The notes: a model not told the origin generated them from the sequence alone. DNA of 32,000 nucleotides from an uncultured Chloroflexia bacterium (GCA_963704755.1 OY969938.1:2280001-2312000), one strand, 5' to 3'. Positions 4,626 to 31,823 are shown, counted from the first letter of the stretch. A program made the numbers and translations.

Positions 4626-4636
4626 AAACGCCTCGT

Positions 4637-12820: not shown

Positions 12821-12821
12821 T

Positions 12822-13316: not shown

Positions 13317-13374
13317 TCTTGCTACCAGAATGCTACGTTTGGCGGTGAAAATTGATCGACCTTTCACCTTATTG

Positions 13375-13462: not shown

Positions 13463-13465
13463 CCC

Positions 13466-14545: not shown

Positions 14546-14553
14546 GATACCCT

Positions 14554-15493: not shown

Positions 15494-15494
15494 A

Positions 15495-16415
15495 TTACAA
15501 ACCTCTCCCTGCCAGGAATCCCGCTGCCAGCAAAGCCAGCGCCGCGACGATGAACCCCCAGCGGCTGTAGAAGCGCACCGCCTGGGTAATTTTCAGGCGG
15601 GCCGTCCCGGCCGCCAGGGCTGCCAGCAGCCATACCAGCAGCAGGGAAACGCCCACAAACAGGAGCAGGTCGAGCGGCCACAAACCGGTGCGTGGCAGGA
15701 GCAGGCAGGTGAAAAAGCCGGTCAGGGTCACCCATTCCAGGCCGTGGGCCAGCTCCCAAAGAGCCAACTGCGGGCCGCCGTATTCGGTCAGCGGGCCGGC
15801 GTAGATTTCCTGTTCGGCGTTGGGCTGAGAGAAGGGGTTGAGGCGCAGCTTGGCCGGCAGGCACAGCAGAATGGCCAGCAAAGCCAGGCCCCGTCCCAGG
15901 CTGAGCGGCGCAGCGGCCAGCCCGGAAAGCTGCAAGGTGTGCGCATCCACCGCCAGGGCCACAATCGCCATCAGGAAGGCCAGGTTATAGGTAATGCTCA
16001 AGACGGCCTCACGCACCGAGCCGATCTCGGCGAACAGCGAGCGCGAGGAGAACCCGGACAGCACGCTGCAAATCGAGGGCAGTTCCAGCAGAGCCACCAA
16101 CAGCACCAGGTCGCCGGCGAAGCCGCCGCCGGAGAGGGTGAACACCGGCAGCAGGGCCAGGGCTCCGGTCAGCGAGGCCAGCGCCAGCACCGGCCAGAAG
16201 GCCATCAGCTTGCCGTCCAGGCCGGGACGGGTCGGGCCGGTTTTGGCCATCAGCTTGACGAAATCGAAGAAGGGCTGCATGAAGGGCGGGCCGATGCGCC
16301 GTTGAAAACGGGCCTCGGTTTTGCGTTCCAGCCACAGCATCAGCCAGCCGGCCGGCAGGGCATACAGCAGGCCGGGAAAGACCAGGGTTGCAAAAAGCGC
16401 CGTTCCCAGGTTCAT
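15495..16415 (-). CDS. Hydrogenase membrane subunit (NuoH/CooK/HycD-like)
   Basis: 306 aa, polytopic, with LERKTEARFQRRIGP (the NuoH-type ERKxxxxxQxRxGP motif) near the N-terminus. Confidence 0.85.
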   Translation of the reverse strand: MNLGTALFATLVFPGLLYALPAGWLMLWLERKTEARFQRRIGPPFMQPFFDFVKLMAKTGPTRPGLDGKLMAFWPVLALASLTGALALLPVFTLSGGGFAGDLVLLVALLELPSICSVLSGFSSRSLFAEIGSVREAVLSITYNLAFLMAIVALAVDAHTLQLSGLAAAPLSLGRGLALLAILLCLPAKLRLNPFSQPNAEQEIYAGPLTEYGGPQLALWELAHGLEWVTLTGFFTCLLLPRTGLWPLDLLLFVGVSLLLVWLLAALAAGTARLKITQAVRFYSRWGFIVAALALLAAGFLAGRGL

Positions 16416-16879
16416 GATAGGGCCTCCTTCAGCACCGGCCGGGATGACTTGCTCGCCAGGATGTCTACCGCCTTCGCGATACCCTCGATGATCGCGTCCG
16501 GGCGGGGCGGACAGCCGGGCACGTACACGTCCACCGGGATGTAGCGGTCCAGCGGGCCGGCCACCACCGGGCTGCCGGCAAACACGTTGCAGGAAGCCGG
16601 GCAGGAGCCCAGCGCCACCACCACCTTGGGCTCGGGTACCTGGGCATAGACCGTCAGCAGGGCGTCCAGGGAATTGCAGGTGACCGGCCCGGTGATGACC
16701 AGGATATCGGCGTGCCGCGGGCTGCCCTGCAGGCGGATGCCCAACTGCTCCACGTCGTAGCGCGGGGTCAAGCAGGCCACCAGCTCGATGTCGCAGCCGT
16801 TGCAGGCGCCGGTATTGAGGTGGTAAAGCCAGGGGCTGCGTCGCCGGGATTGTTCGACCAGATTATCGATAAAACTCAT
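16412..16879 (-). CDS. Group-4 [NiFe]-hydrogenase small subunit (NuoB/CooL/HycG-like)
   Basis: 155 aa with Cys ligands in GACNGCDIE, GSCPASC and YVPGCPPRP (the NuoB-type proximal cluster pattern). It has no Tat signal, so it should face the cytoplasm. Confidence 0.88.
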   Translation of the reverse strand: MSFIDNLVEQSRRRSPWLYHLNTGACNGCDIELVACLTPRYDVEQLGIRLQGSPRHADILVITGPVTCNSLDALLTVYAQVPEPKVVVALGSCPASCNVFAGSPVVAGPLDRYIPVDVYVPGCPPRPDAIIEGIAKAVDILASKSSRPVLKEALS

Positions 16880-16883
16880 TCTG

Positions 16884-19800: not shown

Positions 19801-19913
19801 GCTACAAAGGCCAGCCAGCCTTTACTCTTGGCGGAGAGCCAACGTCCCAGGACGAATTGCAGCAGGATGCCGACGCCGAGCATGCCAAATGGCAAAATAA
19901 CATATTTTTCCAC
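16884..19913 (-). CDS. Fused double antiporter-like membrane subunit (CooM / NuoL-HycC-like plus NuoN/M-like)
   Basis: 1009 aa, GTG start with GGAGG 6 nt upstream. Module 1 has LSWEVIGLCSFLLVSFW, AKSVQFPLHTWIPDAMAAPTPVSALLHAA, LAFSTISQIGYM and HGFFKGGLFL. Module 2 (from about aa 620) has AIKLALVPLYLWLPQAAAATPALV, LAFSTIEDMGYL and HALAKALLFA. Confidence 0.85.
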   Translation of the reverse strand: MEKYVILPFGMLGVGILLQFVLGRWLSAKSKGWLAFVACLAALGSVVAAAFPIQGGGSLDWTALTWDGPLALAYHVDGLSLLFAFMGTAIGAAILLYSIGYMADDPGSTRFYILMLVFIGGLVHLVYSANLLVFYLSWEVIGLCSFLLVSFWYQQKDAVRGARKVLVMTHLAGYGLLAAILLIYTRTGTILWTDPNLGGAVTTGLFLLILVAAVAKSVQFPLHTWIPDAMAAPTPVSALLHAACYVKAGVYLVARLHSLGAWPTAWSNIVIWIGTVTMLVGVLYAMVQTDLKRMLAFSTISQIGYMMLGLGLGTPLGIAAGLLHCLNHGFFKGGLFLGAGSVQHETGTRDMNQLGGLARRMPHTTVFWLINAGAISGIPLLSGFVSKWLLYNAALESGQIIPALVSWFVSVLTVFYFMKATSSVFLGVETTPDSKEIHEVPLVMRWGMGAMAAVSLVLGVAPQLPIQYLINPVLAGLGMTPVTQVTWFGLTTATGSWWSTGGLVLAVVALGGGGLVYYLTQRGHQVVAVASGAGAAEAAWGGVFTGGEPLRGSAHLPASDFSAIIKHNLAPFYTWFDMDRYYLAVWHALLRLSSSVGRAGAWLERRAVAFLLAFSLAAVVAVLPFAPAAGAVSTESGSIPLILTIAAGLACLALLVSAAALPGVRSRLPLMALSGVLAVGGLASANPVLRLALLECSSLAALLLVWRSSQDRIASRAYLAAMLISIVSVVAGNLLLSAGQVTWAAALLLAGFAIKLALVPLYLWLPQAAAATPALVIGLVISVVDVSAFGELWLLSSSGVFAAVSGLWLALALLSSLGGALLMLAQRDLKRLLAFSTIEDMGYLVLGVFAAGQWGLSGALTGIMVHALAKALLFASLSGPETEGAPTLDKHGMASRYPLAGAAFLVGMLAMLGVPPTWGFAARWQLYAAAAAYGSPWLLFAFLLASGMALLAYARALVIFWWGEPSAEGGSSPARLAALNAVMLVLILALLAAGIWPEMVNAFSRLLGG

Positions 19914-20015
19914 GAGCGCCTCCGGATATGGCTGGGCCAGCCAGGCCCTCTCCTGGCACCTGGCTGGCCCAAAGCTAAGAGCTACCGACTAAGGATCTTT
20001 CCGAAAATTGCTGCG

Positions 20016-20056
20016 AGTGTTTGTTTTGGGCGGCTTAGCGGCCCAAAACAAACACT
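20016..20056. repeat. AT-rich 16-bp-stem hairpin in the gap between the ferredoxin and hydrogenase genes
   Basis: AGTGTTTGTTTTGGGC (20016-20031) pairs with GCCCAAAACAAACACT (20041-20056), loop GGCTTAGCG. A second small hairpin TCCCGTT/AACGGGA lies at about 20094-20111. Confidence 0.8.
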
Positions 20057-20140
20057 TAGAAAATAGTCTCTTCCATTTCTAGTGGGGGGTATTTTCCCGT
20101 TCAAAACGGGAGAGCCAGAAAATATTATTTCGGATAGATA

Positions 20141-20623
20141 CTAAGCAGGATTGCCCAGAATGGCATCTTTCATTTTCGAGGCAAAATCTCTCTGGCGCGC
20201 TTTGTTTGAAACCGTATCGTCCACATATTCCAACGCATCCGAAGGGCACATCTGGACACAGGCCGGATCGCCATTGCAGGTATCGCATTTGAAAATGCTG
20301 TCAGTCAGGGCATCGTACACGGCATTGCCGAACGGGCAGGCCATGGTGCACATACGGCAGCGGATGCAACGATTGTCGTCCCACTCGACCAGGGCAGTAT
20401 CCGCGTTACGGTGCATGGCGCCGGTGGGGCAGACGGTCACGCAGGCGGCATCGCTGCAATGTTGGCAGAGCATCGGCACCGAAACTCCTTCGAACGCCCA
20501 GGAATAAACATGAACGCGCGAGGCGTCCAGCCGTTGGCTGCCTTCATGTTCAAATGCACAGGCCATCTCGCAAGCCTGGCAGCCCACGCATCGTTCAGGG
20601 TGGATCATTAAAATTTTAGCCAT
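20141..20623 (-). CDS. 4x[4Fe-4S] ferredoxin-like electron-transfer subunit (CooF/HycB family)
   Basis: 160 aa with 16 Cys in four groups: C12xxC15xxC18xxxC22, C53xxC56x4C61xxxC65P, C86xxC89xxC92xxxC96P and C113xxC116x5C122xxxC126P. GGAGG lies 6 nt upstream of the ATG. Confidence 0.88.
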   Translation of the reverse strand: MAKILMIHPERCVGCQACEMACAFEHEGSQRLDASRVHVYSWAFEGVSVPMLCQHCSDAACVTVCPTGAMHRNADTALVEWDDNRCIRCRMCTMACPFGNAVYDALTDSIFKCDTCNGDPACVQMCPSDALEYVDDTVSNKARQRDFASKMKDAILGNPA

Positions 20624-20658: not shown

Positions 20659-23412
20659 CTAATAGATGGCTGGGACTGCAACAGCCTGTTCTTCAGCCTC
20701 AAGGGCGGCCAGTACTTTCGCCGGGCGGGCCGGCAATTCTTTGACGCGGGCGCCAGTGGCGTTCTTGATGGCGTTGATGATGGCAGCGTGCGGCGAGGTC
20801 AGCGGAAGCTCACCCACGCCGGCGGCGCCGAAGGGGCCATTCTCGCGGGGTGTCTCGACGTAGATGATGTCGATCTTATCCGGCACATCGCGGGCGAAGG
20901 GCACGCCGGCGCCCATCAGGGTGGAGTGCAGCTCGATGTCCTCGAAATCCTCGCTCAGCGCCAGGCCAACGCCCTGGGCCAGGCCGCCGTAAATCTGGCC
21001 GTCCACCACCAGTTTGTTGTTGATCTTGCCGACATCGGCCGCCAGGGTCAAGCCGGTCACCTTGGTCTTGCCGCTCTTGACGTCCACCGTGACTTCGGCC
21101 ATGAAGATGCCGTACATGTACACGGCAAAGGGGCTGCCCTGGGCAGTTTCCGAGTCGCAGTTGGTGTTCATCGAAGAAGCCCAACTGCCCTTATAGCGCA
21201 GCGGTAAGCCCTCTTCCACCATCTGGTCGTAGGTGCGGAATTTGCCATCTTTGATGCGCATGGCGGCGATCAGGTTTTCGCAGCCGTTCTTGATAGCATT
21301 GCCAACCATCACCTGGCTGCGGCTGCCGCCGGCCGGGCCACCGTTGAGGGTCTTGGCGGTATCGTTCATCACCAGCTTGATGACTTTCGGGTCCAGGCCG
21401 AGCGGGCGCAGGGCCTCGTGAGCCGTGCCGAGCACGCCCATATCGGCGCCCTGGCCGTGGTCGTGCCAGTTGGCATACACGGTCACGCCTTGTTTGGTCA
21501 GTTCGACTTCGATTTCGGCCCCATCCACGCCATCCAGGCCGCAGCCATAGATGCCGATGGAGATCCCCACGCCTTTCTTCTTCTCGGGGGTCGATTCGCG
21601 TTCCGCCCGTTCCAGGGCTTCCTGGTAGCGCGGGCGCAGCTTGTCGATCATCTCCGGCAGGGAGTAAACCTCGGGCGGCTGGCCGGTAGGGGTGGTATCG
21701 CCGGGGCGATAGACGTTCTGGTAGCGCAATTCGAGCGGGTCCATATCCATGGCTTCGGCCAGCTCATCGATCAGGCACTCGGAGGCGAACATACTTTCCG
21801 GTGCGCCGTAGCCGCGGAATGCGGCTCCCCAGGCATGATTGGTGCAGACCGTGCGGCCAATACCGCGGATGCTGGGAATGTTGTAACCGGCGCCGATAAA
21901 CTGAGCCCCCCGCAGAGTCAACAGGTCGCCAAACTCGGAGTAGGGGCCGTGGTCCACGGTCCAGTCGCTCTCCATCGCCAGCAACTTGCCTTTCGAATCG
22001 GCCGCCAGCTTGAGGTTGACAAAGAAAGGCGAGCGCTTGCCGGTGTAGGTCATGTACTGGTGGTAATCGTAAGTCAGCGAGACCGGGTGATTGGTGGCCA
22101 TGCAGGCCACGCCCAGCAGGGCCTCCATGGTCGGGGAGAATTTATAGCCAAATGTACCGCCGGCCGGGTTTTGCACCATGCGGATCTTCTCGGGCTCGAG
22201 GCCGATGCCGGGGGCGATCATCAGCAGATGCAGATACAGGCCGATGCTCTTGGAGTGGATGGTCAGCCGGCCTTCGCTGTCGAAATAGGCAAAGCCGGTA
22301 TCCGATTCGATGCTCATGTGCGGCTGGCGCTGGGTGTAGAAATTGTCCTCCACCACGTAAGCGGCTTTGTCCATGATCGGGGCCGTTTCTTCGCCCTTGA
22401 CGATCTTCTGTTCGAAGTAGATGTTCGGCGTGCCGGGATGGATTTCGATGGCGTCGTCTGACATGGCATCCGGCGCATTCATATAAGCCGGCAGCTCTTC
22501 CAGCTCCACTTTGACCTTATCGGCGGCGGCCCGGGCATGCGCTTCGGTGTCGGCGCAGACGATGGCAATGGCGTCGCCGAACTGGAACACCTTGGTATCG
22601 CACAGGATCGGCCGGTCCCAACCATCGCCCTTATTGGTCGAAAAAGTGATCAGGCCGGTAATGCGGTTCTTGCCTTTGACGTCTTTGTGGGTGACCACTT
22701 TGAAGACGCCCGGCATCTTCTCGGCTGCCGAGGTATCGATTGAAAGGATGTTGGCGTGCGAGACCTTGGCCTGCACCAGCGCCAACCGCAGGGTGTTAGC
22801 CGGCATCTTGAGCGCCAAATCCTGGCCGAAATCTAACGTGCCGGTCACTTTGGCTTTCGCGGTGGGGCGGGGATATTTGCTGCCCCAGACGTGGCCGTCC
22901 TTGGGCATCTTGTATTCCAGCTCGGTCTCGCTCATTTCGCCCCGCAGAACCTTGGCCGCGTCCATGATCGAATCGACGATCGGTTTGTAGCCGGTGCAGC
23001 GGCAGACGTTATGATGCTTGGTGAGCCAGGTGCGTACTTCTTCGCGGGTGGGGTCGGGGTTCTGGTCCAGCAGTGCTTTGGAGGAAACCACCATACCCGG
23101 CGTGCAGAAACCGCATTGGGCCGCGCCATGCACGATCATGGCTTTCTGGATGGGATGCATGTGATCCGGGGTGCCGATGCCTTCCACCGTCGTGATTTTG
23201 GCCCCATCCGGCACGCGTTTGGCCCGGGTTACGCAGGACAGGGTTAACCTGCCATCCACGATAACCGAACAGGCCCCGCAGTGACCATCATTGCAGGAGA
23301 CTTTCGTACCGGTCAACAAAAGCTGCTGGCGCAGTACATCCGCCAATGACGCATCCTCGGCAACCTCAATTGACCGGGACACGCCATTAATATTAAACAT
23401 TTTCTTTTGCAT
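20659..23412 (-). CDS. mop: Mop-type aldehyde oxidoreductase (xanthine oxidase family; 2x[2Fe-2S] plus Mo-pterin domains in one chain, no FAD domain)
   Basis: CNDGHCGACSV..C (plant-type 2Fe-2S), QCGFCTPGMV..CRCTGY (second 2Fe-2S), then GTFGYKFS, AFRGYGAP and the catalytic-Glu context AAGVGELPLTSPHAAIINAI. Length and domain order match my recollection of Desulfovibrio gigas Mop along the whole chain. The start was chosen at the ATG at 23412 (GGAGG 5 nt upstream); the ORF is open to 23433. Confidence 0.9.
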   Translation of the reverse strand: MQKKMFNINGVSRSIEVAEDASLADVLRQQLLLTGTKVSCNDGHCGACSVIVDGRLTLSCVTRAKRVPDGAKITTVEGIGTPDHMHPIQKAMIVHGAAQCGFCTPGMVVSSKALLDQNPDPTREEVRTWLTKHHNVCRCTGYKPIVDSIMDAAKVLRGEMSETELEYKMPKDGHVWGSKYPRPTAKAKVTGTLDFGQDLALKMPANTLRLALVQAKVSHANILSIDTSAAEKMPGVFKVVTHKDVKGKNRITGLITFSTNKGDGWDRPILCDTKVFQFGDAIAIVCADTEAHARAAADKVKVELEELPAYMNAPDAMSDDAIEIHPGTPNIYFEQKIVKGEETAPIMDKAAYVVEDNFYTQRQPHMSIESDTGFAYFDSEGRLTIHSKSIGLYLHLLMIAPGIGLEPEKIRMVQNPAGGTFGYKFSPTMEALLGVACMATNHPVSLTYDYHQYMTYTGKRSPFFVNLKLAADSKGKLLAMESDWTVDHGPYSEFGDLLTLRGAQFIGAGYNIPSIRGIGRTVCTNHAWGAAFRGYGAPESMFASECLIDELAEAMDMDPLELRYQNVYRPGDTTPTGQPPEVYSLPEMIDKLRPRYQEALERAERESTPEKKKGVGISIGIYGCGLDGVDGAEIEVELTKQGVTVYANWHDHGQGADMGVLGTAHEALRPLGLDPKVIKLVMNDTAKTLNGGPAGGSRSQVMVGNAIKNGCENLIAAMRIKDGKFRTYDQMVEEGLPLRYKGSWASSMNTNCDSETAQGSPFAVYMYGIFMAEVTVDVKSGKTKVTGLTLAADVGKINNKLVVDGQIYGGLAQGVGLALSEDFEDIELHSTLMGAGVPFARDVPDKIDIIYVETPRENGPFGAAGVGELPLTSPHAAIINAIKNATGARVKELPARPAKVLAALEAEEQAVAVPAIY

Positions 23413-23541
23413 CCTTACCTCCTTATAAAACATTGGGAATATGGGGCACGGGCGGAAATTTCATCAAAATGCACATTGCATGCAGGGGAAAGGCCCTGAA
23501 TTCGGATACTTCTTGCATATACCTGAAAAGCTACTTTAGAT

Positions 23542-23655
23542 GTAACTGCTCAGGCAGGTTCAGAAGGGATGGGTGTTTTTTTTATTGTTTTTGTGTACTT
23601 CGCACACAAAAACAATAAAAAACACCCGGTCCCTCCATAGCAGCTGAGTAGTTAC
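23542..23655. promoter_or_regulatory. Nested ~115-bp palindrome with an AT-rich ~25-bp stem in the divergent control region
   Basis: Inner arms GGGTGTTTTTTTTATTGTTTTTGTGT (23571-) and ACACAAAAACAATAAAAAACACCC (-23627) pair with a 2-nt bulge. Outer arms are GTAACTGCTCAG (23542-23553) and CTGAGTAGTTAC (23644-23655). Confidence 0.7.
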
Positions 23656-23805
23656 CTTTACATCATAGGTTAAAAACTAGCGGGTTTCATCGGGCAGGTG
23701 GGTACTCTATATTGGGCCAGGTGACCCATTCCGGATAGCCCACTTGACCGATGAAATGGCCAGGGGGGCACTATATACTGAAAGCAACTGTCCAGCTCAA
23801 TAGCT

Positions 23806-23878
23806 AAAAAACCCGAATTTGCGATGTCCGCGGGGGTTTAGACCCCGCTGACATCGCAAATTCGGGAAATTCTTACAC
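23806..23878. repeat. Palindromic hairpin element, second member of the CCCGAATTTG...CAAATTCGGG family
   Basis: CCCGAATTTGCGATGTC (23812-23828) pairs with GACATCGCAAATTCGGG (23850-23866), with an inner GCGGGG/CCCCGC stem. The flank AAATTCTTAC mirrors GTAAGAAC of the 7613 copy. Confidence 0.8.
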
Positions 23879-23925
23879 TTGCTTGCGTCGTTACATTCAG
23901 GTTTCGGTCAGTTTAAGGTCAAAAG

Positions 23926-26256
23926 TTGGGAACTTTAATGGATCAAAAAGAAATGCACGACCTGGAAGCCGAATGCGTCCAGGAATGTGCCCCACCTTGC
24001 ACGGCAGCCTGCCCATTGCACGTAGATGTGCGTGCGTTGAACGCGGCCCTCAGCCAGGGCGACTTTTCCGCCGGTTTGCAGATCCTCAAAAAAAGCCTGC
24101 CTTTCCCCGGGATCATTGGCCGCATCTGCGAGCAGCCCTGCCGGGACGTCTGCCGGCGCAATGAAGCCATCGCGATTGCCAGCCTGGAGCGTGCCTGTGC
24201 GGACTGGGGCGAAACGGCCCCGGCCAAAAGCGGCACTCCAACGCTGCGTAAGCAGCGCGTTGCCATTGTCGGCGGGGGCCTGAGCGGCCTGACCGCTGCT
24301 TTCGATTTAGCCCGGAAGCGCTACAGTGTGGTGCTCTTCGAGGCCAGCGGCTACCTGGGCGGCAGCCTGTGGTCGCTGCCGGAAAGCCGCCTGCCGCGCC
24401 CGGTCATCGAGGCCGAAACGGCCCTGGTCGCCAAAATGGGTGTAGAAGTGCACCTGAACAGCCCGGTCAGTACCGAAGCCGGTTCGGGCAGCGTCTCTCT
24501 CTGGCAGCTCCAGCGTGATTTCGAAGCCGTTTACCTGGCGGTGGGGAGCCACCCGGCCGGGCGTTTTTCGTTTTCTTCCGATCCGGTCGACCCACTGACG
24601 TACGCCACCGGCCAGGAGGGCATCTTCGCCGGCGGTGAAATGCTGAAAAAGGATGGCCCGGTTTCGCCGGTCGCGGCCATGTCGGACGGGCGCCGGGCGG
24701 CCACCTCGATCGAGCGCTTCGTCCAGCGGGTTTCGCTGACCGCCTCGCGCGCCAACGAAGGCGCCTACGAAAGCTGCCTGTACACCAACACCGCGGGCCA
24801 GCCCGTTCTGCCGGTCACACCGGCCGGCCACACTGCCGCCGGCTACAGCCGGGAAGAAGCCCAAAGCGAAGCCGGCCGCTGCCTTCAATGCGAGTGCCTG
24901 GAATGCACCAAAGTGTGCGAATACCTGGCCCGTTTTGGCAGCTACCCGAAGAAATATATCCGCCAGATCTACAACAACCTGACCATCGTGATGGGCACCC
25001 GCTCGGCCAACAAGCTGATCAACTCGTGCAGTCTGTGCGGGCTGTGCGCCGAGGTTTGCCCGACCGACCTGGACATGGGAGCCCTGTGCAAGCAGGCCCG
25101 CCAGGTGATGGTGGCCCAGGGGCACATGCCCCCTTCGGCCCACGATTTCGCCTTACGCGATATGCAGTTCAGTAACAGCGCTAAATTTGCCCTGGCCCGC
25201 CACCAGCCGGGTAGCGAGACCAGCACGTATGTTTTCTTCCCCGGCTGCCAGCTCAGCGCCTCGGCCCCCGAGCAGGTGGAGCAGGTCTATGCCTACCTGC
25301 GCGAAAAGCTGTCCGGCGTGGGCCTGCTGCTGCGCTGCTGCGGCGCGCCGGCCGATTGGGCCGGGCGCAGCGACCTGGTCCAGGATAACCTGGCGGAACT
25401 CTCGGCCCAAATTGCCGCAATGGGCCACCCGCGCGTCATCCTGGCCTGTTCGAGCTGTTACCAGATCTTCAAGACCCGCCTGCCGGACGTCGAAATCGTC
25501 TCGCTGTGGGAGCTGTTCGAACAGCTCGGCCTGCCCCAGGGCGCTCCGCAGGGCAAGGACCGGGTGGTGGCCATCCACGACCCGTGTACCACCCGCTACG
25601 AATCGCATATTCAAGACAGCGTGCGCAGCCTGGTCGGCCGGCTGGGATACCGGGTCGAAGAGCTGCCCCTTAGCCGCGAGAAAACCACCTGCTGCAGCTA
25701 CGGGGGCGTGATGTGGCTGGCCAACCCGGAATTGGCCCAGGAAGTGGTCGAGCGGCGCATCAGCGCCAGCCCGGCCGATTACCTGACCTACTGCGCCATG
25801 TGCCGCGATTTCTTCGCCAACCACGGCAAGCGCACGCTGCACCTGCTCGACCTGGTCTTTGGCGGCGATTGGGATGCGCGGGCAACCCTTCCCGGGCCCG
25901 GCTACTCTCAACGGCACGAAAACCGGGCCAGGCTCAAACAAAAATTACTCAAAGAAGTCTGGGGTGAAACGATGACCGGACAAGAAGATTACGAATCGGT
26001 CCGCTTGGTGATCCCCGAGGACGTCGGGCAGCGCCTGGAAGACCGCCTGATCCTGGTCGAAGACATCCAGCGCGTGATTGCGTACGCCGAAAGGACCGGC
26101 CGCAAGTTCCGCCAGGCCCAGACCGGCCGCTTTCTGGCGCATTATTGCCCCACGCGGGTGACCTACTGGGTCGAGTATTCCCCCCAGGGAGATGCCTTCG
26201 AGGTCCACAACGCCTACAGCCACCGCATGGAAGTCGGGGAGGGCCAGAAATCATGA
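23926..26256 (+). CDS. Fusion oxidoreductase: GltD-like Fe-S/FAD module, HdrC-like 2x[4Fe-4S], two HdrB/GlcF-like CCG domains, and a C-terminal domain of unknown function
   Basis: N-terminal CxxxC..CP Fe-S region, a single dinucleotide fold VAIVGGGLSGLTAAFDL..FEASGYLGG, CLQCECLECTKVCEY and CSLCGLCAEVCP, then CCG motifs FFPGCQ...RCCGAP and HDPCTT...TCCSYGG. The start is ambiguous: TTG at 23926 or ATG at 23938. Confidence 0.85.
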   Translation: MGTLMDQKEMHDLEAECVQECAPPCTAACPLHVDVRALNAALSQGDFSAGLQILKKSLPFPGIIGRICEQPCRDVCRRNEAIAIASLERACADWGETAPAKSGTPTLRKQRVAIVGGGLSGLTAAFDLARKRYSVVLFEASGYLGGSLWSLPESRLPRPVIEAETALVAKMGVEVHLNSPVSTEAGSGSVSLWQLQRDFEAVYLAVGSHPAGRFSFSSDPVDPLTYATGQEGIFAGGEMLKKDGPVSPVAAMSDGRRAATSIERFVQRVSLTASRANEGAYESCLYTNTAGQPVLPVTPAGHTAAGYSREEAQSEAGRCLQCECLECTKVCEYLARFGSYPKKYIRQIYNNLTIVMGTRSANKLINSCSLCGLCAEVCPTDLDMGALCKQARQVMVAQGHMPPSAHDFALRDMQFSNSAKFALARHQPGSETSTYVFFPGCQLSASAPEQVEQVYAYLREKLSGVGLLLRCCGAPADWAGRSDLVQDNLAELSAQIAAMGHPRVILACSSCYQIFKTRLPDVEIVSLWELFEQLGLPQGAPQGKDRVVAIHDPCTTRYESHIQDSVRSLVGRLGYRVEELPLSREKTTCCSYGGVMWLANPELAQEVVERRISASPADYLTYCAMCRDFFANHGKRTLHLLDLVFGGDWDARATLPGPGYSQRHENRARLKQKLLKEVWGETMTGQEDYESVRLVIPEDVGQRLEDRLILVEDIQRVIAYAERTGRKFRQAQTGRFLAHYCPTRVTYWVEYSPQGDAFEVHNAYSHRMEVGEGQKS

Positions 26257-26462
26257 GCGAAGTACCGCAAGGGACGCCCGGCGAATGGCTATGCGCGAAC
26301 TGTAACTTGCCTTTGCAGCCCGGACAGATCACCGTGGCTTACCTGGGGAATTCCTACCCGGTCAGCCTGCTGCGCTGCCCCAACTGCGGCCTGGTCCTGG
26401 TGCCGGAAGACCTGGCGCTGGGCAAAATGGCCGAGGTGGAGAAAGCCCTGGAAGATAAATAA
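26253..26462 (+). CDS. Small zinc-ribbon / rubredoxin-like protein (DVU_1557-like, by recollection)
   Basis: 69 aa with CANC...(22 aa)...CPNC. Its ATG overlaps the upstream TGA (ATGA at 26253-26256). The longer ORF from 26145 is rejected. Confidence 0.7.
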   Translation: MSEVPQGTPGEWLCANCNLPLQPGQITVAYLGNSYPVSLLRCPNCGLVLVPEDLALGKMAEVEKALEDK

Positions 26463-26473
26463 CAGGCGCCCCG

Positions 26474-27196
26474 TTGAACTGGATCGAAGACCGCACGCGC
26501 ATCTACGAAAGGGCCGAGGTCCAACAGGCCCTGGGCGAAACGCTGCGGCCCGGCGGCCTGGCTTTGACCAAACGAGCGTTGGAGTATTGCGACCTGCTGC
26601 CCGGCGCGCGTGTGCTGGACGCGGGCTGCGGCGCCGGACTGACGGTGCAGTACCTGCGCAAAGCCGGCTACCTGGCCTGCGGGATCGACCTTTCGCTCGC
26701 GCTGCTGGGAAAAGGACGCCAGCAGTACCTGGATGTAGCCCTGGCGGACGCGGTTCATCTGCCCCTGCCAGCCGGCCGGATGGAGGCCATATTTTGCGAG
26801 TGCAGCCTTTCGGTATTCGCCCAGGCGGACGATGCCTTGAGAGAATTTTACCGGCTGCTCAACCGCTCCGGCTACCTGGTCATCAGCGACCTGTACGCGC
26901 GTAACCCGGCCCACCTGGCGGCGCTCCGCGCTCTGCCGGCCGGCAGTTGCATCCGCGGGATGATGTCCCAGGCCGATCTGCTGGCGCGGCTGGCCGCCTA
27001 TGGGCTCGAACTGCTGATCTGGGAGGACCATTCCGAGGCGCTGCGCCACATTTCCTGCCAGACGCTGGCCATGCCCAACCTCTCCGCCCTGGACCAGGGC
27101 GAGACCGGTGGGTGCGGCCTGGACGCCCTGGACTTGCAGCTCGCCATCGCCAAAGCCCGGCCGGGCTACTTCTTATTGATCGCTCAAAAGCATTGA
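26474..27196 (+). CDS. Class I SAM-dependent methyltransferase
   Basis: Motif I VLDAGCGAGLTV, the acidic loop GIDLS, and post-I/II pattern. It uses a TTG start 11 nt after the upstream stop, and no in-frame ATG precedes motif I. Confidence 0.8.
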   Translation: MNWIEDRTRIYERAEVQQALGETLRPGGLALTKRALEYCDLLPGARVLDAGCGAGLTVQYLRKAGYLACGIDLSLALLGKGRQQYLDVALADAVHLPLPAGRMEAIFCECSLSVFAQADDALREFYRLLNRSGYLVISDLYARNPAHLAALRALPAGSCIRGMMSQADLLARLAAYGLELLIWEDHSEALRHISCQTLAMPNLSALDQGETGGCGLDALDLQLAIAKARPGYFLLIAQKH

Positions 27197-27244
27197 TGGC
27201 CCTGGCGGACAAAACCGCAGGGCGTTTGCACAGGAGGTTTAGCC

Positions 27245-27688
27245 ATGGATGATATGGATCGCATGCGCGAGATGAAAGCCGAAGGTTTTCTTTGCAGCCA
27301 GATCCTGCTGAAACTGGGCCTGGAGTTGCAGGGCAAAGAAAACCCCGACCTGGTCCGGGCGGCAAACGGCCTGGCCAGGGGATTGGGTTTCTCCGGCGAA
27401 CTGTGCGGCGCGCTGACCGGCGGAGCCTGTTTGCTGGGGTTGTACGCCGGCAAGGGCCTGCCCGAGGACGAAGAAAATCCTCAACTGGATTTTATGGTGA
27501 CCGACCTGGTGAAATGGTTCAAACAGGAATACGGGCAGATGTACGGCGGCGTCCGCTGCCTGGATATCGCCGGCAACGACAGCAAAAATATGGCCACGCG
27601 CTGCCCGCTGATCGTGTTGGGCACGTTCCAACGGGTCAAGGAAATGCTGGTCGAGAACGGCTTCAACCTGGCAGGAGCGGACGAATGA
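27245..27688 (+). CDS. C_GCAxxG_C_C family protein (putative redox-active Cys protein)
   Basis: 147 aa with GFLCSQ, the GELCGALTGG core, VRCLDI and ATRCPLIV, which is the four conserved Cys pattern that names the family. CAGGAGG lies 7 nt upstream of the ATG. Confidence 0.8.
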   Translation: MDDMDRMREMKAEGFLCSQILLKLGLELQGKENPDLVRAANGLARGLGFSGELCGALTGGACLLGLYAGKGLPEDEENPQLDFMVTDLVKWFKQEYGQMYGGVRCLDIAGNDSKNMATRCPLIVLGTFQRVKEMLVENGFNLAGADE

Positions 27689-29202
27689 GCTGCTGTGGCG
27701 AAAAGCCAGCCAAAACCACGGAAACAACCTGCGGCTGCACTTCGGCACCTGCGTCCGGCGGCGGCGATAACTCAGCCGAGACTGCGGAAACAGCCTGCGA
27801 CTGTGCTCCGGCTCCCACATCCTGCTGCTGCCCATCGGAGGAAAGCGAGCAGGTGCTTTCTCTCACCGAGAGTGTTTGCCCCGAATGCCTGACGCGCCTG
27901 CCGGCCCGCCGGGTAGCCCGCGGCGAGAACGTTTACCTGGAAAAGTTCTGCCCCCAGCACGGCTTCTTCCAGACCGTCATCTGGCGCGGGCAGCCCGCCT
28001 TTTTGAGCTGGGTGCGGCCCAAAATTCCCACCGCACCGCGCTACCCCTTTACCCGGGTAGAGCAGGGCTGCCCGTTCGACTGCGGCCTGTGCCCCGACCA
28101 TCGCCAGCAGCCCTGCTGCGTCCTGCTGGACGTGACCCAGCGCTGCGACCTGGCCTGCGCTTTCTGTTTTGCCAGCGCGGGCGGCGCGAAGCCGGCCGTA
28201 GACCCGTCGCTGGACGAGATCGAGGGCTGGTACCGGCGTCTGCTGGAGGCCGGCGGGCCGTTCAACATCCAGCTTTCCGGAGGCGAGCCCAGCCTGCGAG
28301 ACGACTTGCCTGAGATCATCGCCCTGGGAAAGTCACTGGGGTTCACCTTTTTCCAGATCAACACCAATGGGCTGCGTCTGGCCAGGGACCCGGAATATTT
28401 GCACCGGCTCAAAGCCGCCGGGCTCTGCACCGTTTTCTTGCAGTTCGACGGCACCTGCGATGAAATCTACCGGCAAATGCGTGGCCGGAAGCTGCTGGCC
28501 CAGAAGAAGCAGGTCATCGAACGCTGCGCCGCGGAAGGCCTGGGCGTGGTGCTGGTGCCCACCCTGGTGCCCGGGGTCAACACCGCCAACATCGGCGAGA
28601 TCATCCGCCTGGCGCTGGACTATGTGCCAACCGTACGCGGGGTGCACTTCCAACCGGTCAGCTATTTTGGCCGCTATCCCCAGGCGCCGCGCGATGCGGA
28701 CCGGATCACCATCCCCGAGGTCATCTGCGCCGTCGAAGAACAAACCGGCAAGCTGATCGGGCGTGAGAGTTTTCTGCCCCCCGGCGGCGAGAATGCGCTG
28801 TGCTCCTTCCACGCCAATTTTGTGGTCATGCCCGACGGGACCCTGGCCCCCTTGACCCACCTCGAAGTCAATTCCTGCGGCTGCGGCAAGCCGGAACGGG
28901 CCGACGAAGGCGCGCTCAAGTCGCGCCTGGTCACGGCCAAACAATGGGCCGCCCCGCTGGCCGTCGAGGCCAAAAGCGAGTGCTGCGGCAGCAGCCTGGG
29001 CGGCTGGGACGTGTTCCTGGAGCGGGCCAAAACCCACACCTTCAGCGTCTCCGGCATGGCCTTTCAGGACGCCTGGAACCTGGACCTGGAGCGCCTGCGC
29101 GACTGCTACATCATGCAGGTGAGCCAGTCCAACAACCTGGTGCCCTTCTGCGCCTATAACCTGACCGACCGGCAGGGCCGGTCGTTGTACCGGGGAAAGT
29201 AA
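27685..29202 (+). CDS. Radical SAM enzyme of the COG1964 / Tes (GDGT-MAS, MJ0619)-like architecture with a Cys-rich N-terminal tail
   Basis: CDLACAFC (CxxxCxxC) follows a zinc-ribbon-like CPEC...CPQHG and an auxiliary GCPFDCGLCPDH..CC. SGGEP and the C-terminal MAFQDAWNLDLERLRDC...PFCAYN are also present. The ATG at 27685 overlaps the upstream TGA. The ORF extension back to 27292 overlaps the previous gene and is rejected. Confidence 0.85.
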   Translation: MSCCGEKPAKTTETTCGCTSAPASGGGDNSAETAETACDCAPAPTSCCCPSEESEQVLSLTESVCPECLTRLPARRVARGENVYLEKFCPQHGFFQTVIWRGQPAFLSWVRPKIPTAPRYPFTRVEQGCPFDCGLCPDHRQQPCCVLLDVTQRCDLACAFCFASAGGAKPAVDPSLDEIEGWYRRLLEAGGPFNIQLSGGEPSLRDDLPEIIALGKSLGFTFFQINTNGLRLARDPEYLHRLKAAGLCTVFLQFDGTCDEIYRQMRGRKLLAQKKQVIERCAAEGLGVVLVPTLVPGVNTANIGEIIRLALDYVPTVRGVHFQPVSYFGRYPQAPRDADRITIPEVICAVEEQTGKLIGRESFLPPGGENALCSFHANFVVMPDGTLAPLTHLEVNSCGCGKPERADEGALKSRLVTAKQWAAPLAVEAKSECCGSSLGGWDVFLERAKTHTFSVSGMAFQDAWNLDLERLRDCYIMQVSQSNNLVPFCAYNLTDRQGRSLYRGK

Positions 29203-29224: not shown

Positions 29225-29263
29225 CCCTCCCTTCCCCCAAATTGGGGGAAGGGAGGGCTTTTT
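29225..29263 (+). terminator. Rho-independent terminator of the plus-strand operon
   Basis: CCCTCCCTTCCCCC (29225-29238), loop AAATT, GGGGGAAGGGAGGG (29244-29257), followed by CTTTTT. It starts 23 nt after the radical SAM stop. Confidence 0.8.
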
Positions 29264-29343: not shown

Positions 29344-29985
29344 TTAGCTATTCAAATGATGCTGTACGGCCAGCGCGACGGCCTCGGCGCGGTTGGCTGC
29401 GTCCAGTTTGGAGAGGATGTGGCTGACGTGGTGCTTGACCGTGGATGGGCTGACGACCAGTTGTTTGGCGATTTCAGTGTTGTTCAGGCCCTTGACCAAC
29501 AGCGCCAACACCTCGCGCTCGCGGTCGCTCAAATCGTGGCCAAGCTGGGGGGGCTGGGAGGCGGCGCGCAGCAGAGCCTGGGCGGCCTCCGGTGACAGGG
29601 TCGATTGGCCGGCGTTGGCCAGGCGGATGGCCTCGGCCAGCTCGTCTGCCTGGACATCTTTGATTAAATAGCCAATCGCCCCAGCCCGCAGGGCTTTTTG
29701 AACCAACGCCTCATCTTTAAAACTGGTCAAAACCAATACCCGGGTCTGGGGGCAGCACTCACGGATCGCCTGGGTGGCCTCGGCTCCGTCCATACCGGGC
29801 AAAGCCAGGTCCATCAGCACCACATCCGGCTGAACCTGGGGGCAGAGCTGGACGGCCTCTTCGCCTGTCCGCACGTCTCCTACCAGTTCCAAATCGTCAT
29901 ACGCCGCAAGAAAAGCCGACAAACCGCTGCGAAACACGGCATGGTCATCGACGATCATCACTCGAATGGTTTTAGCTGCGATCAT
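29344..29985 (-). CDS. NarL/FixJ-type response regulator (REC plus LuxR HTH)
   Basis: IRVMIVDDH...DVVLMDLALPGMDG receiver domain, and the C-terminal LSDREREVLALLVKGLNNTEIAKQLVVSPSTVKHHVSHILSKL. Confidence 0.92.
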   Translation of the reverse strand: MIAAKTIRVMIVDDHAVFRSGLSAFLAAYDDLELVGDVRTGEEAVQLCPQVQPDVVLMDLALPGMDGAEATQAIRECCPQTRVLVLTSFKDEALVQKALRAGAIGYLIKDVQADELAEAIRLANAGQSTLSPEAAQALLRAASQPPQLGHDLSDREREVLALLVKGLNNTEIAKQLVVSPSTVKHHVSHILSKLDAANRAEAVALAVQHHLNS

Positions 29986-31823
29986 GACTGCTCCTTAGGG
30001 GATGATTCCAACCAGGTCACTTCGATTTGAGTGCCACAGCCCGGCTTGGTTTTCAGCTTCATTGTCGCATGAATGGCGGCCGCCCGCTCATGCATAATCT
30101 TCAAGCCCAGATGCTCCGGCGAGACACAATCCGGCTCGAACCCGCAGCCATCGTCGCAAATCGTTATTTCTACCCGCTCAGGCAGGAAACGCAGGTTCAC
30201 CGCCGTCTGGCTGGGGTTGGCGTATTTCGCCACGTTATTCAAAGCTTCCTGGGTGATGCGGTACAAGGCGACCTGTACGTCCGGCGGGAGCATGCGGTCC
30301 CCCTCTACCGTCAGCGTGATGGGAATGCGTGTCCGGCTGGCAATGGCCTGGGTCAAGTGCTTGAAAAGGTCGCCCAGTTTGGCTTCTTTCAATGCGGAGG
30401 GGCGCAGCTCGAACAACAGCGTGCGCATTTCGGCCAAGGCCCCGCGGGTCAACTGGCGCAATTCCTCCAGGCGCCGGCGGCCTTCGGCCTGGTCCCGGTC
30501 CCACAGTCGCGGGATGACCTCGGCCATCAAGCTGGTTGAAAAGAGAGTCTGGCTGACGGCGTCGTGCAGCTCGCGGGCCAGGCGGTTGCGTTCGGCCATC
30601 ACCGCCGCTTGCTCGGCTTGCATACGCAGGCGGGCGTTTTCAATCGCCAGGGCGACCTGATCGCTGAAGGCCAGGGCCATGCCGATCTCTTCCTCAGAAA
30701 AAGCCTGCGGCTGCTGATAATACATCGAAATACCGCCGTAAACCTGGCCCTTAATGATCAGGGGCACGGCCAGCCAGGCCTGGTAAAGCGCGGTCATCTG
30801 GTTGACCAGGCTCCATTCGGTGGGGGTCATGGTCAGGTCTGACTCGTCATCCAAAGTGTCGGCCGCATTGGCCACCGCCACCGGCTGGCGGGTCAAGATG
30901 GCCTGGCGTACAGCTTCGCGCCCGGCCGACATCGCTTCGGTGTTCATAAATTCAGCCGGCAGCCCGTGAGCCGCTTGAACGGCAAGGTTGATGCCATTAG
31001 GCTGTAAGGAATAAATGGCCATCGCCTGGCAGTCCAGCAAGCGGCTGCTGACATGTTCGACGATATACCCCAAAATGTCATCCAGCGAGCGATTCGAGTT
31101 CAAAATGGCCATCATCACCCGCAGACCCTCGGCCATCTGGTGGCGTCCTTCGGCCTCGAGCCGCCGTTCTTGCTGCTCCTGGTAAAGGCGCGCGTTTTGC
31201 AGGCCAATCACCGCGCTGGGGGCCAACATACTCACCACCCGCAGGCTGTCGGCGCCTAATACCGCCTTGTCGTGGTCCGCCATCGCGATGACCCCGATCG
31301 GCCGGATCCCCGAAATGAGCGGCACCGTCATATAACTGTGGATATTGCCAAAGCGCTTGATGGCTTCGCGGTAAAGCCGGGTGTCGTCGCTTTGTACATC
31401 TGCGATCATGATCGGCTGGCTGGTTTGAATGGATAAACCGGCCACCGATTGCGCCACCGGGATACGATAGCCGATCAATTCTTCGGGGTGCTTGTGCCCA
31501 GACACCGCAGCGATCTGCAAGTCATTTCCTTCCAGCACGTACAACAAACTCAATTGGGCTGAAGTGAGGCGTTGGGCCGCATCGGCAATCAACTGCAATA
31601 CATCGCTCAAATCAAGCTGGCTGGTAATAGCCTGCTGGATGGTCAGCAGGGTCACTAACTCGTCGGCATGTTGTTTGGTCGAACAAGGGGTATTCGTATA
31701 ATGGCAAGAAGGCCAATCCACCGAGGGGGTGATCGTTTCCAGGTTTGGTTTTTTAGAGATGCTATTTTCTTTGACCATTCTCGCGTTTTTGGGGGAGTGA
31801 GCCAGGGATTTACTTTCAGGCAT
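29982..31823 (-). CDS. Cytoplasmic sensor histidine kinase (two GAF-like regions, HisKA_3, HATPase_c)
   Basis: H-box ARELHDAVSQTLFS, N-box EALNNVAKYA, DDGCGF and GLKIMHERA. No TM segments were seen. The N-terminal ~400 aa has two GAF-like repeats. It overlaps the response regulator start by 4 nt. Confidence 0.88.
   Translation of the reverse strand: MPESKSLAHSPKNARMVKENSISKKPNLETITPSVDWPSCHYTNTPCSTKQHADELVTLLTIQQAITSQLDLSDVLQLIADAAQRLTSAQLSLLYVLEGNDLQIAAVSGHKHPEELIGYRIPVAQSVAGLSIQTSQPIMIADVQSDDTRLYREAIKRFGNIHSYMTVPLISGIRPIGVIAMADHDKAVLGADSLRVVSMLAPSAVIGLQNARLYQEQQERRLEAEGRHQMAEGLRVMMAILNSNRSLDDILGYIVEHVSSRLLDCQAMAIYSLQPNGINLAVQAAHGLPAEFMNTEAMSAGREAVRQAILTRQPVAVANAADTLDDESDLTMTPTEWSLVNQMTALYQAWLAVPLIIKGQVYGGISMYYQQPQAFSEEEIGMALAFSDQVALAIENARLRMQAEQAAVMAERNRLARELHDAVSQTLFSTSLMAEVIPRLWDRDQAEGRRRLEELRQLTRGALAEMRTLLFELRPSALKEAKLGDLFKHLTQAIASRTRIPITLTVEGDRMLPPDVQVALYRITQEALNNVAKYANPSQTAVNLRFLPERVEITICDDGCGFEPDCVSPEHLGLKIMHERAAAIHATMKLKTKPGCGTQIEVTWLESSPKEQS

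Follow-up and report, generated by a model that had tools for sequence, protein, structure and literature searches.

A 32,000-nucleotide stretch of DNA from an uncultured Chloroflexia bacterium (GCA_963704755.1 OY969938.1:2280001-2312000; hereafter the window) carries five genes at positions 23,926-29,202, divergent from mop, the gene for a Mop-type molybdopterin (molybdopterin cytosine dinucleotide, MCD) aldehyde oxidoreductase (AOR). The last of the five encodes TrsS, an enzyme of the radical S-adenosylmethionine (SAM) class related to the tetraether synthase Tes. The window copy is a reduced, rearranged member of a known neighbourhood, and the functional link of the five-gene set to Mop is strongly supported. 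The reading preferred here, and held tentatively, is that in the TrsS system a low-potential electron donor, which can be exchanged, feeds a Tes-like radical SAM enzyme. Its observed basis consists of family membership, conserved ligands of the cofactors, synteny, fusions, swapped modules and co-induction seen in a second species. The operon and mop comprised the following features.

23926-26256, plus strand: DICL gene (776 aa; start codon TTG, in-frame ATG also at 23938, four codons on)
about 25963-26253, plus strand: Cdom, the C-terminal DICL domain (approximately 90 aa, without a Pfam model)
26253-26462, plus strand: ZR gene (69 aa)
26474-27196, plus strand: MT gene (240 aa; TTG start)
27245-27688, plus strand: CGA gene (147 aa)
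27685-29202, plus strand: TrsS gene (505 aa)
29225-29257, plus strand: intrinsic terminator (15-bp stem with 11 G-C pairs, 3-nt loop, then CTTTTT)
20659-23433, minus strand: mop, Mop-type molybdopterin (MCD) AOR (NF045668, 1644 bits, cut-off 1100)

Gene junctions were read directly. ATGA overlaps join DICL to ZR (26253-26256) and CGA to TrsS (27685-27688), and the intergenic gaps measure 11 nt (ZR-MT) and 48 nt (MT-CGA). All open reading frames (ORFs), overlaps and gaps lay where a preliminary description of this DNA had placed them, and the strong terminator that it had closing the unit was recovered as a G+C-rich hairpin 23 nt past the TrsS stop codon, the best-scoring in the 10-kb region scanned. 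Spacing, strand and terminator suggest that the five genes form one co-transcribed operon.

Each of the five proteins exceeded the curated cut-off of one specific family in an NCBIfam profile search; the genes are therefore not chance ORFs. DICL scored 1048.7 bits against NF045663 (diclust_near_Sec, cut-off 530), its residues 6-771 covering positions 1-758 of the 759 in the profile. ZR scored 99.7 bits against NF045645 (DVU_1557 family, cut-off 60) and also matched Pfam PF24292 (DUF7479). The scores were 212.7 bits for MT against NF045667 (DVU_1556 methyltransferase, cut-off 155), 165.7 bits for CGA against NF045669 (DVU_1555 C-GCAxxG-C-C, cut-off 103; Pfam PF09719 also matched) and 673.1 bits for TrsS against NF045646 (cut-off 490). 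The families that the preliminary description had named (DVU_1555, DVU_1556, DVU_1557 and a dicluster protein) were thus the right ones. Its domain content also held: Fer4_20 with a flavin adenine dinucleotide (FAD) Rossmann fold, a dicluster and two CCG motifs, a CxxC...CxxC protein, a class I methyltransferase, a C_GCAxxG_C_C protein and a radical SAM enzyme with extra Cys clusters. Pfam matches of Mop were Fer2, Fer2_2, Ald_Xan_dh_C and MoCoBD_1/2.

Conservation was assessed in two scans. The first used a TrsS alignment with one genome per species and returned 80 loci (identified below by L numbers); the second, reciprocal scan was anchored on Mop and covered metagenome contigs. Both kept the 80 best matches to the query, and distant family members are under-sampled. 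The canonical array, on one strand, reads (molybdopterin-binding protein)-Mop-DICL-ZR-MT-CGA-TrsS-LIG-XdhC-MocA-like-CobC-like, often with a sigma-54 activator. LIG is a DVU_1553-type PaaK-like ligase, XdhC is an XdhC-type Mop maturation factor, and the MocA-like NTP transferase carries an HD domain. At the 64 TrsS-anchored loci with at least 7 kb of upstream DNA, mop was present in 48, DICL in 49, ZR in 54, MT in 46 and CGA in 52. Strict colinearity was found at 35 of them, and the window order DICL-ZR-MT-CGA-TrsS is the same. From the Mop side, where enough downstream DNA was available, DICL was found in 69/71 loci and TrsS in 43/45. LIG stood directly behind TrsS in 67 of the 80 loci. Hosts belonged to Chloroflexota, Bacillota, Desulfobacterota, Acidobacteriota, Campylobacterota, Spirochaetota, Myxococcota and Pseudomonadota.

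The neighbourhood was already known, with NCBIfam models for all nine proteins (NF045645, NF045646 and NF045663-NF045669). The AMP-ligase and NTP-transferase partners named earlier are present in the canonical cluster as NF045666 and NF045665, alongside NF045664 (XdhC). DVU_1551-DVU_1559, CLJU_RS11815-11830 and SMUL_2092-2101, like the window, hold Mop and five proteins passing the same cut-offs, in the order of the 35 colinear loci. Unlike them, the window has mop inverted, then a polyferredoxin gene and group-4 hydrogenase genes. In the 32-kb window no tblastn match was obtained for the DVU_1553-type ligase, XdhC, the MocA-like NTP transferase or the CobC-like phosphatase, all of which belong to the known neighbourhood; they may be encoded in another part of the genome. 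The window TrsS further differs in that its Cys/Sec site is Gly and its N-terminus bears an additional Cys-rich tail, and regulation apparently lies with a LuxR-type two-component pair, not a sigma-54 activator. The preliminary description had overlooked that the window copy is reduced, that mop stands at the head of a mop-ferredoxin-hydrogenase array, and that earlier papers had described the neighbourhood (PMC5640608) and given TrsS its name (Haft & Tolstoy 2025, cited in PMC13188914). LIG was also missing beside the operon in the three closest relatives (L081-L083). A divergent, paralogous second version of the whole array was observed in L003 and L021 (Mop 44-47% and DICL 34% identical to the window). 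It sometimes shares a genome with the first version (L016 and L021), echoing the tandem sets of C. ljungdahlii.

Published expression data were available for two species. In C. ljungdahlii, tandem sets of Mop, FAD-CCG fusion, four-Cys and C_GCAxxG_C_C proteins were noted by Aklujkar et al., and the first set is upregulated on syngas or H2/CO2 (PMC5640608). SMUL_2092-2100 were detected only in pyruvate-fermenting S. multivorans, with Mop 142-fold up (Kruse et al., PMC6242987 supplement). Fermentation-adapted cells had TrsS 26-fold, DICL 10-fold, CGA 9-fold, XdhC 6-fold and Mop 16.5-fold up (PMC6242987). Mop was among the ten most abundant proteins in fermenting cells and exceeded the accessory proteins approximately 20- to 270-fold (approximately 34-fold for DICL, 55-fold for TrsS) (PMC6242987). 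Two-way synteny in at least eight phyla, together with this co-induction (PMC6242987), bears out the functional link to Mop that had been put forward. Mop-DICL divergence was correlated (rho = 0.61), a value confounded by phylogeny and not used as evidence. No experimental assignment of function for the set was found in the literature, as the preliminary description had stated, and for DVU_1553-1559 phenotypes only proteomic listings of Aor were found.

Near-obligate linkage of this kind also suits the main rival explanation, in which the set would mature, repair or reactivate Mop (the tungsten AOR in Geobacter) by thiol/persulfide chemistry of the CCG, CGA and ZR proteins combined with radical SAM chemistry, for example at the terminal sulfido ligand. 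The canonical cluster holds XdhC, the MocA-like NTP transferase, a molybdopterin-binding protein and sometimes a cysteine desulfurase, MoeA and tungstate/molybdate transporters. Accessory proteins of S. multivorans are about as abundant as XdhC and far under Mop (PMC6242987). We nevertheless judge maturation unlikely, and the contexts in which the TrsS core occurs with partners other than Mop bear on it.

Mop and the whole DICL body were replaced by a tungsten-type AOR (WOR) with a small Fe-S subunit in L045, L162/L163, L164 and L166. L162 and L163 are the same G. metallireducens locus (L162: CP000148.1 2011000-2031482); the genomes are G. metallireducens GS-15, Geoanaerobacter pelophilus, a third genome and that of L045. 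These loci retain Cdom-ZR, MT, CGA, TrsS and LIG, and in G. metallireducens MT, CGA, TrsS and LIG still score above the curated cut-offs. A tungstate/molybdate-type ATP-binding cassette transporter follows the core in two of the tungsten-AOR genomes. Other replacements were a three-subunit xanthine dehydrogenase (XDH)-like enzyme (L165) and a Fer2 protein with a molybdenum-bis(pyranopterin guanine dinucleotide) (Mo-bisPGD) enzyme (L050). L052 has a Mo-bisPGD enzyme downstream of TrsS, beside a short HdrD-like DICL, and L053 combines a short HdrD-like DICL with HdrA-like, MvhD and AsrAB-like proteins. In L071 the DICL has a full NAD(P)H domain and stands next to HGD-D/BcrAD enzymes. Several HGD-D pairs and a BcrAD-type ATPase lie beside the TrsS core in L055 (12780-20143) and L071 (3559-8227), from Dehalococcoidales and Syntrophales; these neighbours, related to 2-hydroxyacyl-CoA dehydratases and benzoyl-CoA reductases, hint at a CoA-ester substrate.

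The partner census of 81 TrsS-anchored loci gave Mop in 53, distant xanthine oxidase-family enzymes (30-40% identical) in 2, WOR in 1, bis-PGD enzymes in 2, HGD-D/BcrAD in 2, Hdr/Mvh in 1, and none or too short a sequence in 20. The DICL body is absent where a tungsten AOR, the three-subunit XDH-like enzyme or the L050 Mo-bisPGD enzyme replaces Mop, and Cdom stays with ZR; loss of the body along with Mop fits the role of a Mop-specific adaptor. Replacement of Mop and the DICL body by a tungsten AOR and Fe-S subunit in Geobacterales is new here, as are the Hdr/Mvh-like or NAD(P)H-type replacements in some Dehalococcoidia and Syntrophales. What the alternative partners share is very low-potential electron delivery into an Fe-S relay, not a cofactor or a substrate.

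For maturation these contexts cut both ways. Most of the alternative partners are themselves pterin enzymes (WOR, XDH-like, bis-PGD), as it would expect. Against it, L053, L055, L063 and L071 have no pterin enzyme within 10 kb of the core (HdrD-like protein, Cdom, ZR, MT, TrsS and LIG), and a stand-alone TrsS-DUF5714 fusion exists in L030. MT and the PaaK-like ligase have no obvious sulfuration role, and the window keeps the five genes yet has neither XdhC nor MocA nearby. Mo-MCD and W-bis-pyranopterin enzymes are unrelated and mature differently, and crystal structures of D. gigas Mop show an ordinary MCD cofactor. Molybdenum cofactor (Moco) maturation, one of three functions first proposed for the set, is accordingly weakened, because the core also occurs beside a tungsten AOR without homology to Mop and, at several loci of Dehalococcoidia and Syntrophales, with no pterin enzyme within 10 kb.

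The preferred reading, an exchangeable donor serving TrsS, rests next on TrsS itself. TrsS matched GDGT-MAS (7tol) at E 2.5e-82 over residues 60-366 and 449-497, and ligands were compared using the published GDGT-MAS list (PMC9433317). The rubredoxin motif C65-X2-C68-X20-C89-X2-H92 corresponds to C9X2C12X20C33X2H36 of GDGT-MAS. The ligands of the [Fe4S4]N auxiliary cluster are C129, C133, C136 and H139, and the radical SAM motif is C154-X3-C158-X2-C161. None of these ligands varied in alignment A1 or across the 80 loci. Met458 belongs to an invariant SGM and aligns with Met439 of the GDGT-MAS C-terminal cluster, which is labile; that cluster carries the substrate C-S bond (PMC9433317). TrsS therefore has in common with GDGT-MAS/Tes (MJ0619; PDB 7TOL, 7TOM) the CX2CX20CX2H site, the CX3CX2C+His cluster, the radical SAM core and the Met of the C-terminal cluster, and it probably shares the chemistry, hydrogen abstraction from an inert carbon with a cluster-sulfur adduct.

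Such a match (E 2.5e-82, all metal sites retained) could also mean that TrsS couples or modifies acyl or alkyl chains, with MT adding branches. Bacterial Tes homologues have been proposed as synthases of brGDGTs (branched glycerol dialkyl glycerol tetraethers) (PMC8941075), and TrsS occurs in Acidobacteriota (L015, L035, L040). This lipid reading is very improbable. TrsS scored 339.8 bits against the Tes model NF045702, under its cut-off of 450, and residues 367-448 gave no alignment to the lipid-pocket region of 7tol (approximately 80 residues), a Cys/Sec-rich segment standing there instead. The context is one of redox and pterin genes, not lipid synthesis: no lipid-synthesis gene recurs among the annotated conserved neighbour clusters of 160 loci, a single ketoacyl synthase being present at L052. 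To our knowledge membrane-spanning lipids are not known from Desulfovibrio, Acetobacterium, Blautia and Sulfurospirillum, which are among the hosts. Confirmed bacterial makers of such lipids are without Tes homologues (PMC13159169). Synthesis of a modified lipid, another of the functions first proposed, thus found no contextual support.

The 367-448 segment contains a Cys/Sec column at 368 and a CC motif at 398-400. Across 80 sequences column 368 holds C in 46, A in 15, G in 10 and an in-frame TGA in L039; the window has Gly368, and so lacks the Cys/Sec that the family name gives as optional at the selenoprotein position. The L039 TGA (around 10936; context PPG[U]ENALCSFH) aligns with this mostly-Cys column and is a probable selenocysteine site. 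Downstream of it, simple folding gave no stable hairpin for a selenocysteine insertion sequence (z = +1.46 against shuffles). TrsS is listed as a selenoprotein family, credited to Haft & Tolstoy 2025, in PMC13188914. Residues 1-52 of the window protein (27685-27840) form a Cys-rich low-complexity tail (MSCC...CGC...CDC...CCC) common only to the closest relatives (P0002, P0003, P0010), which could serve in metal binding or in cluster delivery. DUF5714 proteins are either fused to TrsS, as in L030 (9992-12169), or its neighbours; the other cases are P0029, P0062, L029 (12129-12863) and, downstream of LIG, L075 and L076. They are rich in Cys, with a sub-cut-off match to 'metal-binding double selenoprotein MbdU'. 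Neither Mop nor DICL lies within 10 kb of the L030 fusion.

DICL matched Fer4_20, NAD_binding_8, Fer4_17 and CCG in Pfam. Its N-terminus is GltD/NfnB-like, with two four-Cys motifs (2x[4Fe-4S]) and one FAD-type Rossmann fold. A ferredoxin-like 4Fe-4S dicluster follows, then two complete HdrB/HdrD-type CCG motifs, which the invariant cysteines C441, C471, C472, C508 and C511, and C554, C589, C590, C623 and C626, fit. The PDB relatives of DICL (GltD/NfnB-type) align to residues 16-233 only, and DICL is therefore taken to lack the NAD(P)H fold implied by its family name: no second, NAD(P)H-binding Rossmann fold was found in the window protein, Pfam Pyr_redox_2 spanning only residues 109-212. The L071 homologue has the full NAD(P)H domain. 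Two complete CX(n)CCGX(m)CX2C motifs and a ferredoxin-like dicluster make DICL resemble HdrB/HdrD CCG proteins, and the pairing of a pterin enzyme with an Hdr-like module recalls the class II benzoyl-CoA reductase BamB-BamC-BamDEF (PMC13328260). It differs from the Hdr and Bam proteins in its fusion to the GltD-like Fe-S/FAD domain (without NAD(P)H fold) and the unique Cdom; moreover, the window holds no HdrA-like bifurcating flavoprotein, and the partner is a xanthine oxidase-family Mo enzyme.

ZR, in which C14, C17, C42 and C45 (two CxxC pairs) were invariant in 66/66 sequences, is a four-cysteine zinc-ribbon or rubredoxin-like protein. One database name for it is 'CLJU_RS11820 family redox protein'. 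In L053 Cdom is a protein on its own, and in Geobacterales it is fused to ZR. The Cdom-ZR fusion is a single 160-aa protein represented by 57 protein clusters, of which those with names come from Geobacter, Geotalea, Geoanaerobacter and Desulfuromonadaceae. Its AlphaFold model, a confident one (predicted local distance difference test, pLDDT, 82; predicted template modelling score, pTM, 0.79), matched no PDB fold at E <= 0.001, Cdom having only a weakly RelE/HigB-like topology.

The following route would accommodate these observations. Mop would oxidise an aldehyde at roughly -0.58 V and so supply electrons, which the DICL body (two N-terminal [4Fe-4S] clusters, FAD, the dicluster and two HdrB-type CCG clusters) would relay to ZR. 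Cdom would dock ZR, and ZR would be the immediate reductant of TrsS. Flow from dehydrogenase to Fe-S adaptor to Cdom-ZR to TrsS is favoured because what the partners share is low potential and because Cdom stays with ZR where the DICL body is absent. TrsS would probably abstract hydrogen from an unactivated carbon of a non-lipid substrate and form a carbon-sulfur (cluster) intermediate; this is suggested because the GDGT-MAS metal sites are kept and the lipid pocket is replaced by the Cys/Sec-rich segment. MT and CGA, and in most genomes the PaaK-like ligase, may act on or carry the TrsS substrate. In the window, polyferredoxin and group-4 hydrogenase would be the bulk electron outlet of Mop, and the TrsS branch would take a small share. 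The large excess of Mop over the accessory proteins in S. multivorans fits such a minor branch, not a stoichiometric complex.

Diphthamide synthesis offers a parallel for ZR as donor. There, Dph3/Kti11 is the electron donor to the radical SAM pair Dph1-Dph2, Dph5 is a methyltransferase and Dph6 an ATP-dependent ligase. By analogy, each system would bring together four elements: a small metal protein with four Cys that a dedicated reductase reduces, a radical SAM enzyme, a SAM methyltransferase and an adenylating ligase. No sequence or fold relation was detected between them, and the likeness is in mode of working only. We infer the direction of electron flow, the Dph3-like role of ZR and the chemistry of TrsS.

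Several points weigh against an exchangeable donor for TrsS. The mechanism steps are proposals from sequence, and neither Cdom-ZR nor CGA has a solved structural relative to back a mechanism. Non-Mop contexts are few (6/81 TrsS-anchored loci, plus Geobacterales), and the alternative partners have more in common than low potential, being mostly pterin enzymes, with HGD-D/BcrAD enzymes acting on CoA esters at two loci. A dedicated donor for a single radical SAM enzyme is unusual, flavodoxin or ferredoxin normally being enough, and CCG clusters usually do thiol/disulfide chemistry, not simple relay. The ligase is absent from the window. Finally, DICL-ZR-(MT-CGA) is kept without TrsS in L101, L105 and L165, and the redox proteins may therefore have a TrsS-independent role. 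An electron outlet from Mop through the CCG domains, the remaining function first proposed, stands in part: electron transfer is partly supported, with TrsS as the likely end user instead of a bulk disulfide sink, and Mop in the window has an outlet of its own in the polyferredoxin and hydrogenase.

MT contains the SAM-binding motif I (VLDAGCGAG; GCGxG), and Cys110 ('EC') in its substrate region is kept in 57/58 sequences. Its nearest solved relatives are generic small-molecule O/N-methyltransferases, not ArsM. ArsM arsenite methyltransferase was rejected as an identity for MT: NF008823 gave only 43.8 bits (cut-off 263), no ArsM structure was among the window MT matches, and for the L053 homologue ArsM structures came 19th, with 39.8 bits where the best match reached 73 bits. 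In L081, the closest relative, MT (8789-9504) is read in three frames with two frameshifts, and mop (3143-5895) is divided between two genes, one with Fer2 and one with MoCoBD. Since mop is split too, assembly error from long-read indels is as likely an explanation of the MT frameshifts as pseudogenisation.

CGA has four invariant cysteines (C17, C54, C105 and C120). Its AlphaFold2 model is confident and all-alpha (pLDDT 79.8, pTM 0.75), and no match to it was found among PDB folds. Homology of CGA to DUF5714 was rejected, with an hhalign probability of 2.3% (P = 0.02) and only the CGAxxG and GG-x-RC motifs aligned.

The Cys-rich character of these proteins raises metal(loid) or organometallic chemistry as a further explanation: Cys/Sec-rich proteins would bind a soft metal or metalloid such as As, Se, Te or Hg, MT and TrsS would alkylate it, and the CCG protein would re-reduce thiols. 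The TrsS Cys/Sec site and CC motifs, the fusion to an MbdU-matching domain and the CC/CxC/CCC tail of the window TrsS are compatible with it, and the best non-family NCBIfam matches of MT are ArsM-type families. Set against solved structures, MT was no closer to ArsM than to other methyltransferases (ArsM 39.8 bits versus 73 bits for generic O/N-methyltransferases with the L053 homologue, and no ArsM match for the window MT), and the metalloid reading thereby lost its main support. The cluster has no conserved transporter or resistance gene, and column 368 is Gly or Ala in 25/80 sequences, the window included. The reported inducers are fermentative or lithotrophic growth, not metal stress (PMC6242987, PMC5640608). 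We regard this explanation as improbable.

A different use of the same enzymes is a linear pathway, in which TrsS and MT would make or transform a small organic molecule by way of an aldehyde intermediate, Mop or a tungsten AOR/aldehyde dehydrogenase would oxidise it to the acid, and the PaaK-like ligase would activate the acid to a CoA ester or adenylate. The position of LIG right after TrsS (67/80 loci) agrees with this, and the Geobacterales substitute for Mop is also aldehyde-oxidising; L045 adds an NAD-type aldehyde dehydrogenase. In L055 and L071 the core is flanked by HGD-D/BcrAD enzymes, whose substrates are CoA esters. Some clusters also contain iron alcohol dehydrogenases, as well as sigma-54 activators that come nearest, among named families, to PrdR, DhaR and AtoC. 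The pathway is a poor fit to the ligase-less copy in the window and in L081-L083, and none of the replacements of Hdr/Mvh or NAD(P)H type is an aldehyde enzyme. Nor can a candidate substrate be named, and Mop exceeds its putative pathway partners by the 20- to 270-fold margin reported for S. multivorans (PMC6242987). Coupling of this kind is a doubtful alternative, a shade less probable than maturation.

The remaining features of the window lie on the mop side, in the control region and downstream of the terminator.

13466-19913, minus strand: group-4 membrane-bound [NiFe]-hydrogenase genes, downstream of mop and the ferredoxin gene
20141-20623, minus strand: HycB/CooF-like polyferredoxin (160 aa; Fer4_11, Fer4_7), directly downstream of mop
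23434-23925, no strand assigned: divergent intergenic control region between mop and DICL
29344-29985, minus strand: LuxR-type response regulator (Pfam), convergent with the operon
29982-31823, minus strand: GAF/HisKA_3 histidine kinase (Pfam), convergent with the operon

In the window mop is divergent and 492 nt upstream of the operon; in most genomes it is upstream on the same strand. The hydrogenase set is complete and consists of a NuoL/Mrp-like fusion, a NuoB-like small subunit, NuoH-like, HycF-like and NuoC-like proteins and the large subunit, in which both Ni-Fe motifs are present (RVCGICSNVH and, at its C-terminus, DPCYSCTDR). The ferredoxin gene and the hydrogenase genes are 228 nt apart (19913-20141), and this gap contains a hairpin. 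The polyferredoxin after mop is kept only in the closest relatives, L081-L083, and the hydrogenase array follows mop and the ferredoxin in L082 and L083 and partly in L081. The layout with inverted mop, ferredoxin and hydrogenase was found in these three relatives and in none of the other approximately 155 loci. As in formate hydrogenlyase (FdhH-HycB-Hyc) and CooS-CooF-Coo, the genes for a low-potential dehydrogenase, a polyferredoxin and a group-4 hydrogenase with antiporter-like subunits stand together. The window differs in that its dehydrogenase is a xanthine oxidase-family AOR, and co-transcription over the 228-nt gap is only putative. By analogy, mop, polyferredoxin and hydrogenase may constitute an 'aldehyde hydrogenlyase'. 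Between the hydrogenase large-subunit gene and a UvrD-type helicase gene, approximately 650 nt (12820-13466) contain no convincing gene; L082 has XdhC-like and MocA-like genes where the window has this gene-poor segment.

The control region contains a conserved block (23662-23781; 72% identity over 120 nt to L081) with promoter-like hexamers in both directions and, inside it, an imperfect palindrome, TTTCATCGG...CCGATGAAA (23685-23756). Two long near-perfect hairpins with 22-25 bp stems (23571-23627 and 23812-23866) are not kept in the nearest relative. No Rfam family, including the Moco riboswitch, was found in the window, the intergenic matches being hairpin noise, and no sigma-54 promoter element was found in the intergenic region. 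The LuxR-type two-component pair downstream is a candidate regulator of the operon. The same regulator/kinase pair lies behind TrsS in L081, and the S. multivorans cluster, too, has genes for a histidine kinase and a response regulator at its flank (SMUL_2102/2103; PMC6242987).

The gene set is present in many strict anaerobes, among them sulfate reducers, acetogens, gut Blautia, Geobacter, Sulfurospirillum, Chloroflexota and Acidobacteriota. TrsS, with the full tetraether-synthase metal machinery in a redox setting, is a good candidate for new C-H activating chemistry. It also bears on surveys of bacterial 'Tes homologues' for brGDGT producers, in which thresholds such as E < 1e-50 were used (PMC8941075) and matches were reported in Chloroflexota, Desulfobacterota and Acidobacteriota (bioRxiv 10.1101/2024.06.25.600576). 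Because the TrsS-GDGT-MAS match at E 2.5e-82 clears such thresholds, these surveys probably include TrsS genes unrelated to lipids.

A bolder version, at present doubtful, is that the TrsS system would be a new radical-SAM pathway with its own electron generator (Mop, tungsten AOR or Hdr/Mvh modules), making a novel thiol/selenol cofactor or protein modification common to strict anaerobes, with Mop in the window lineage also forming an energy-conserving 'aldehyde hydrogenlyase' with the polyferredoxin and the group-4 hydrogenase. Module swapping gives a concrete, testable model, for which D. vulgaris, G. metallireducens, S. multivorans and C. ljungdahlii are tractable. To this family the window adds a lineage-specific coupling of Mop to hydrogenase, and the comparative work adds a module-swapping rule.

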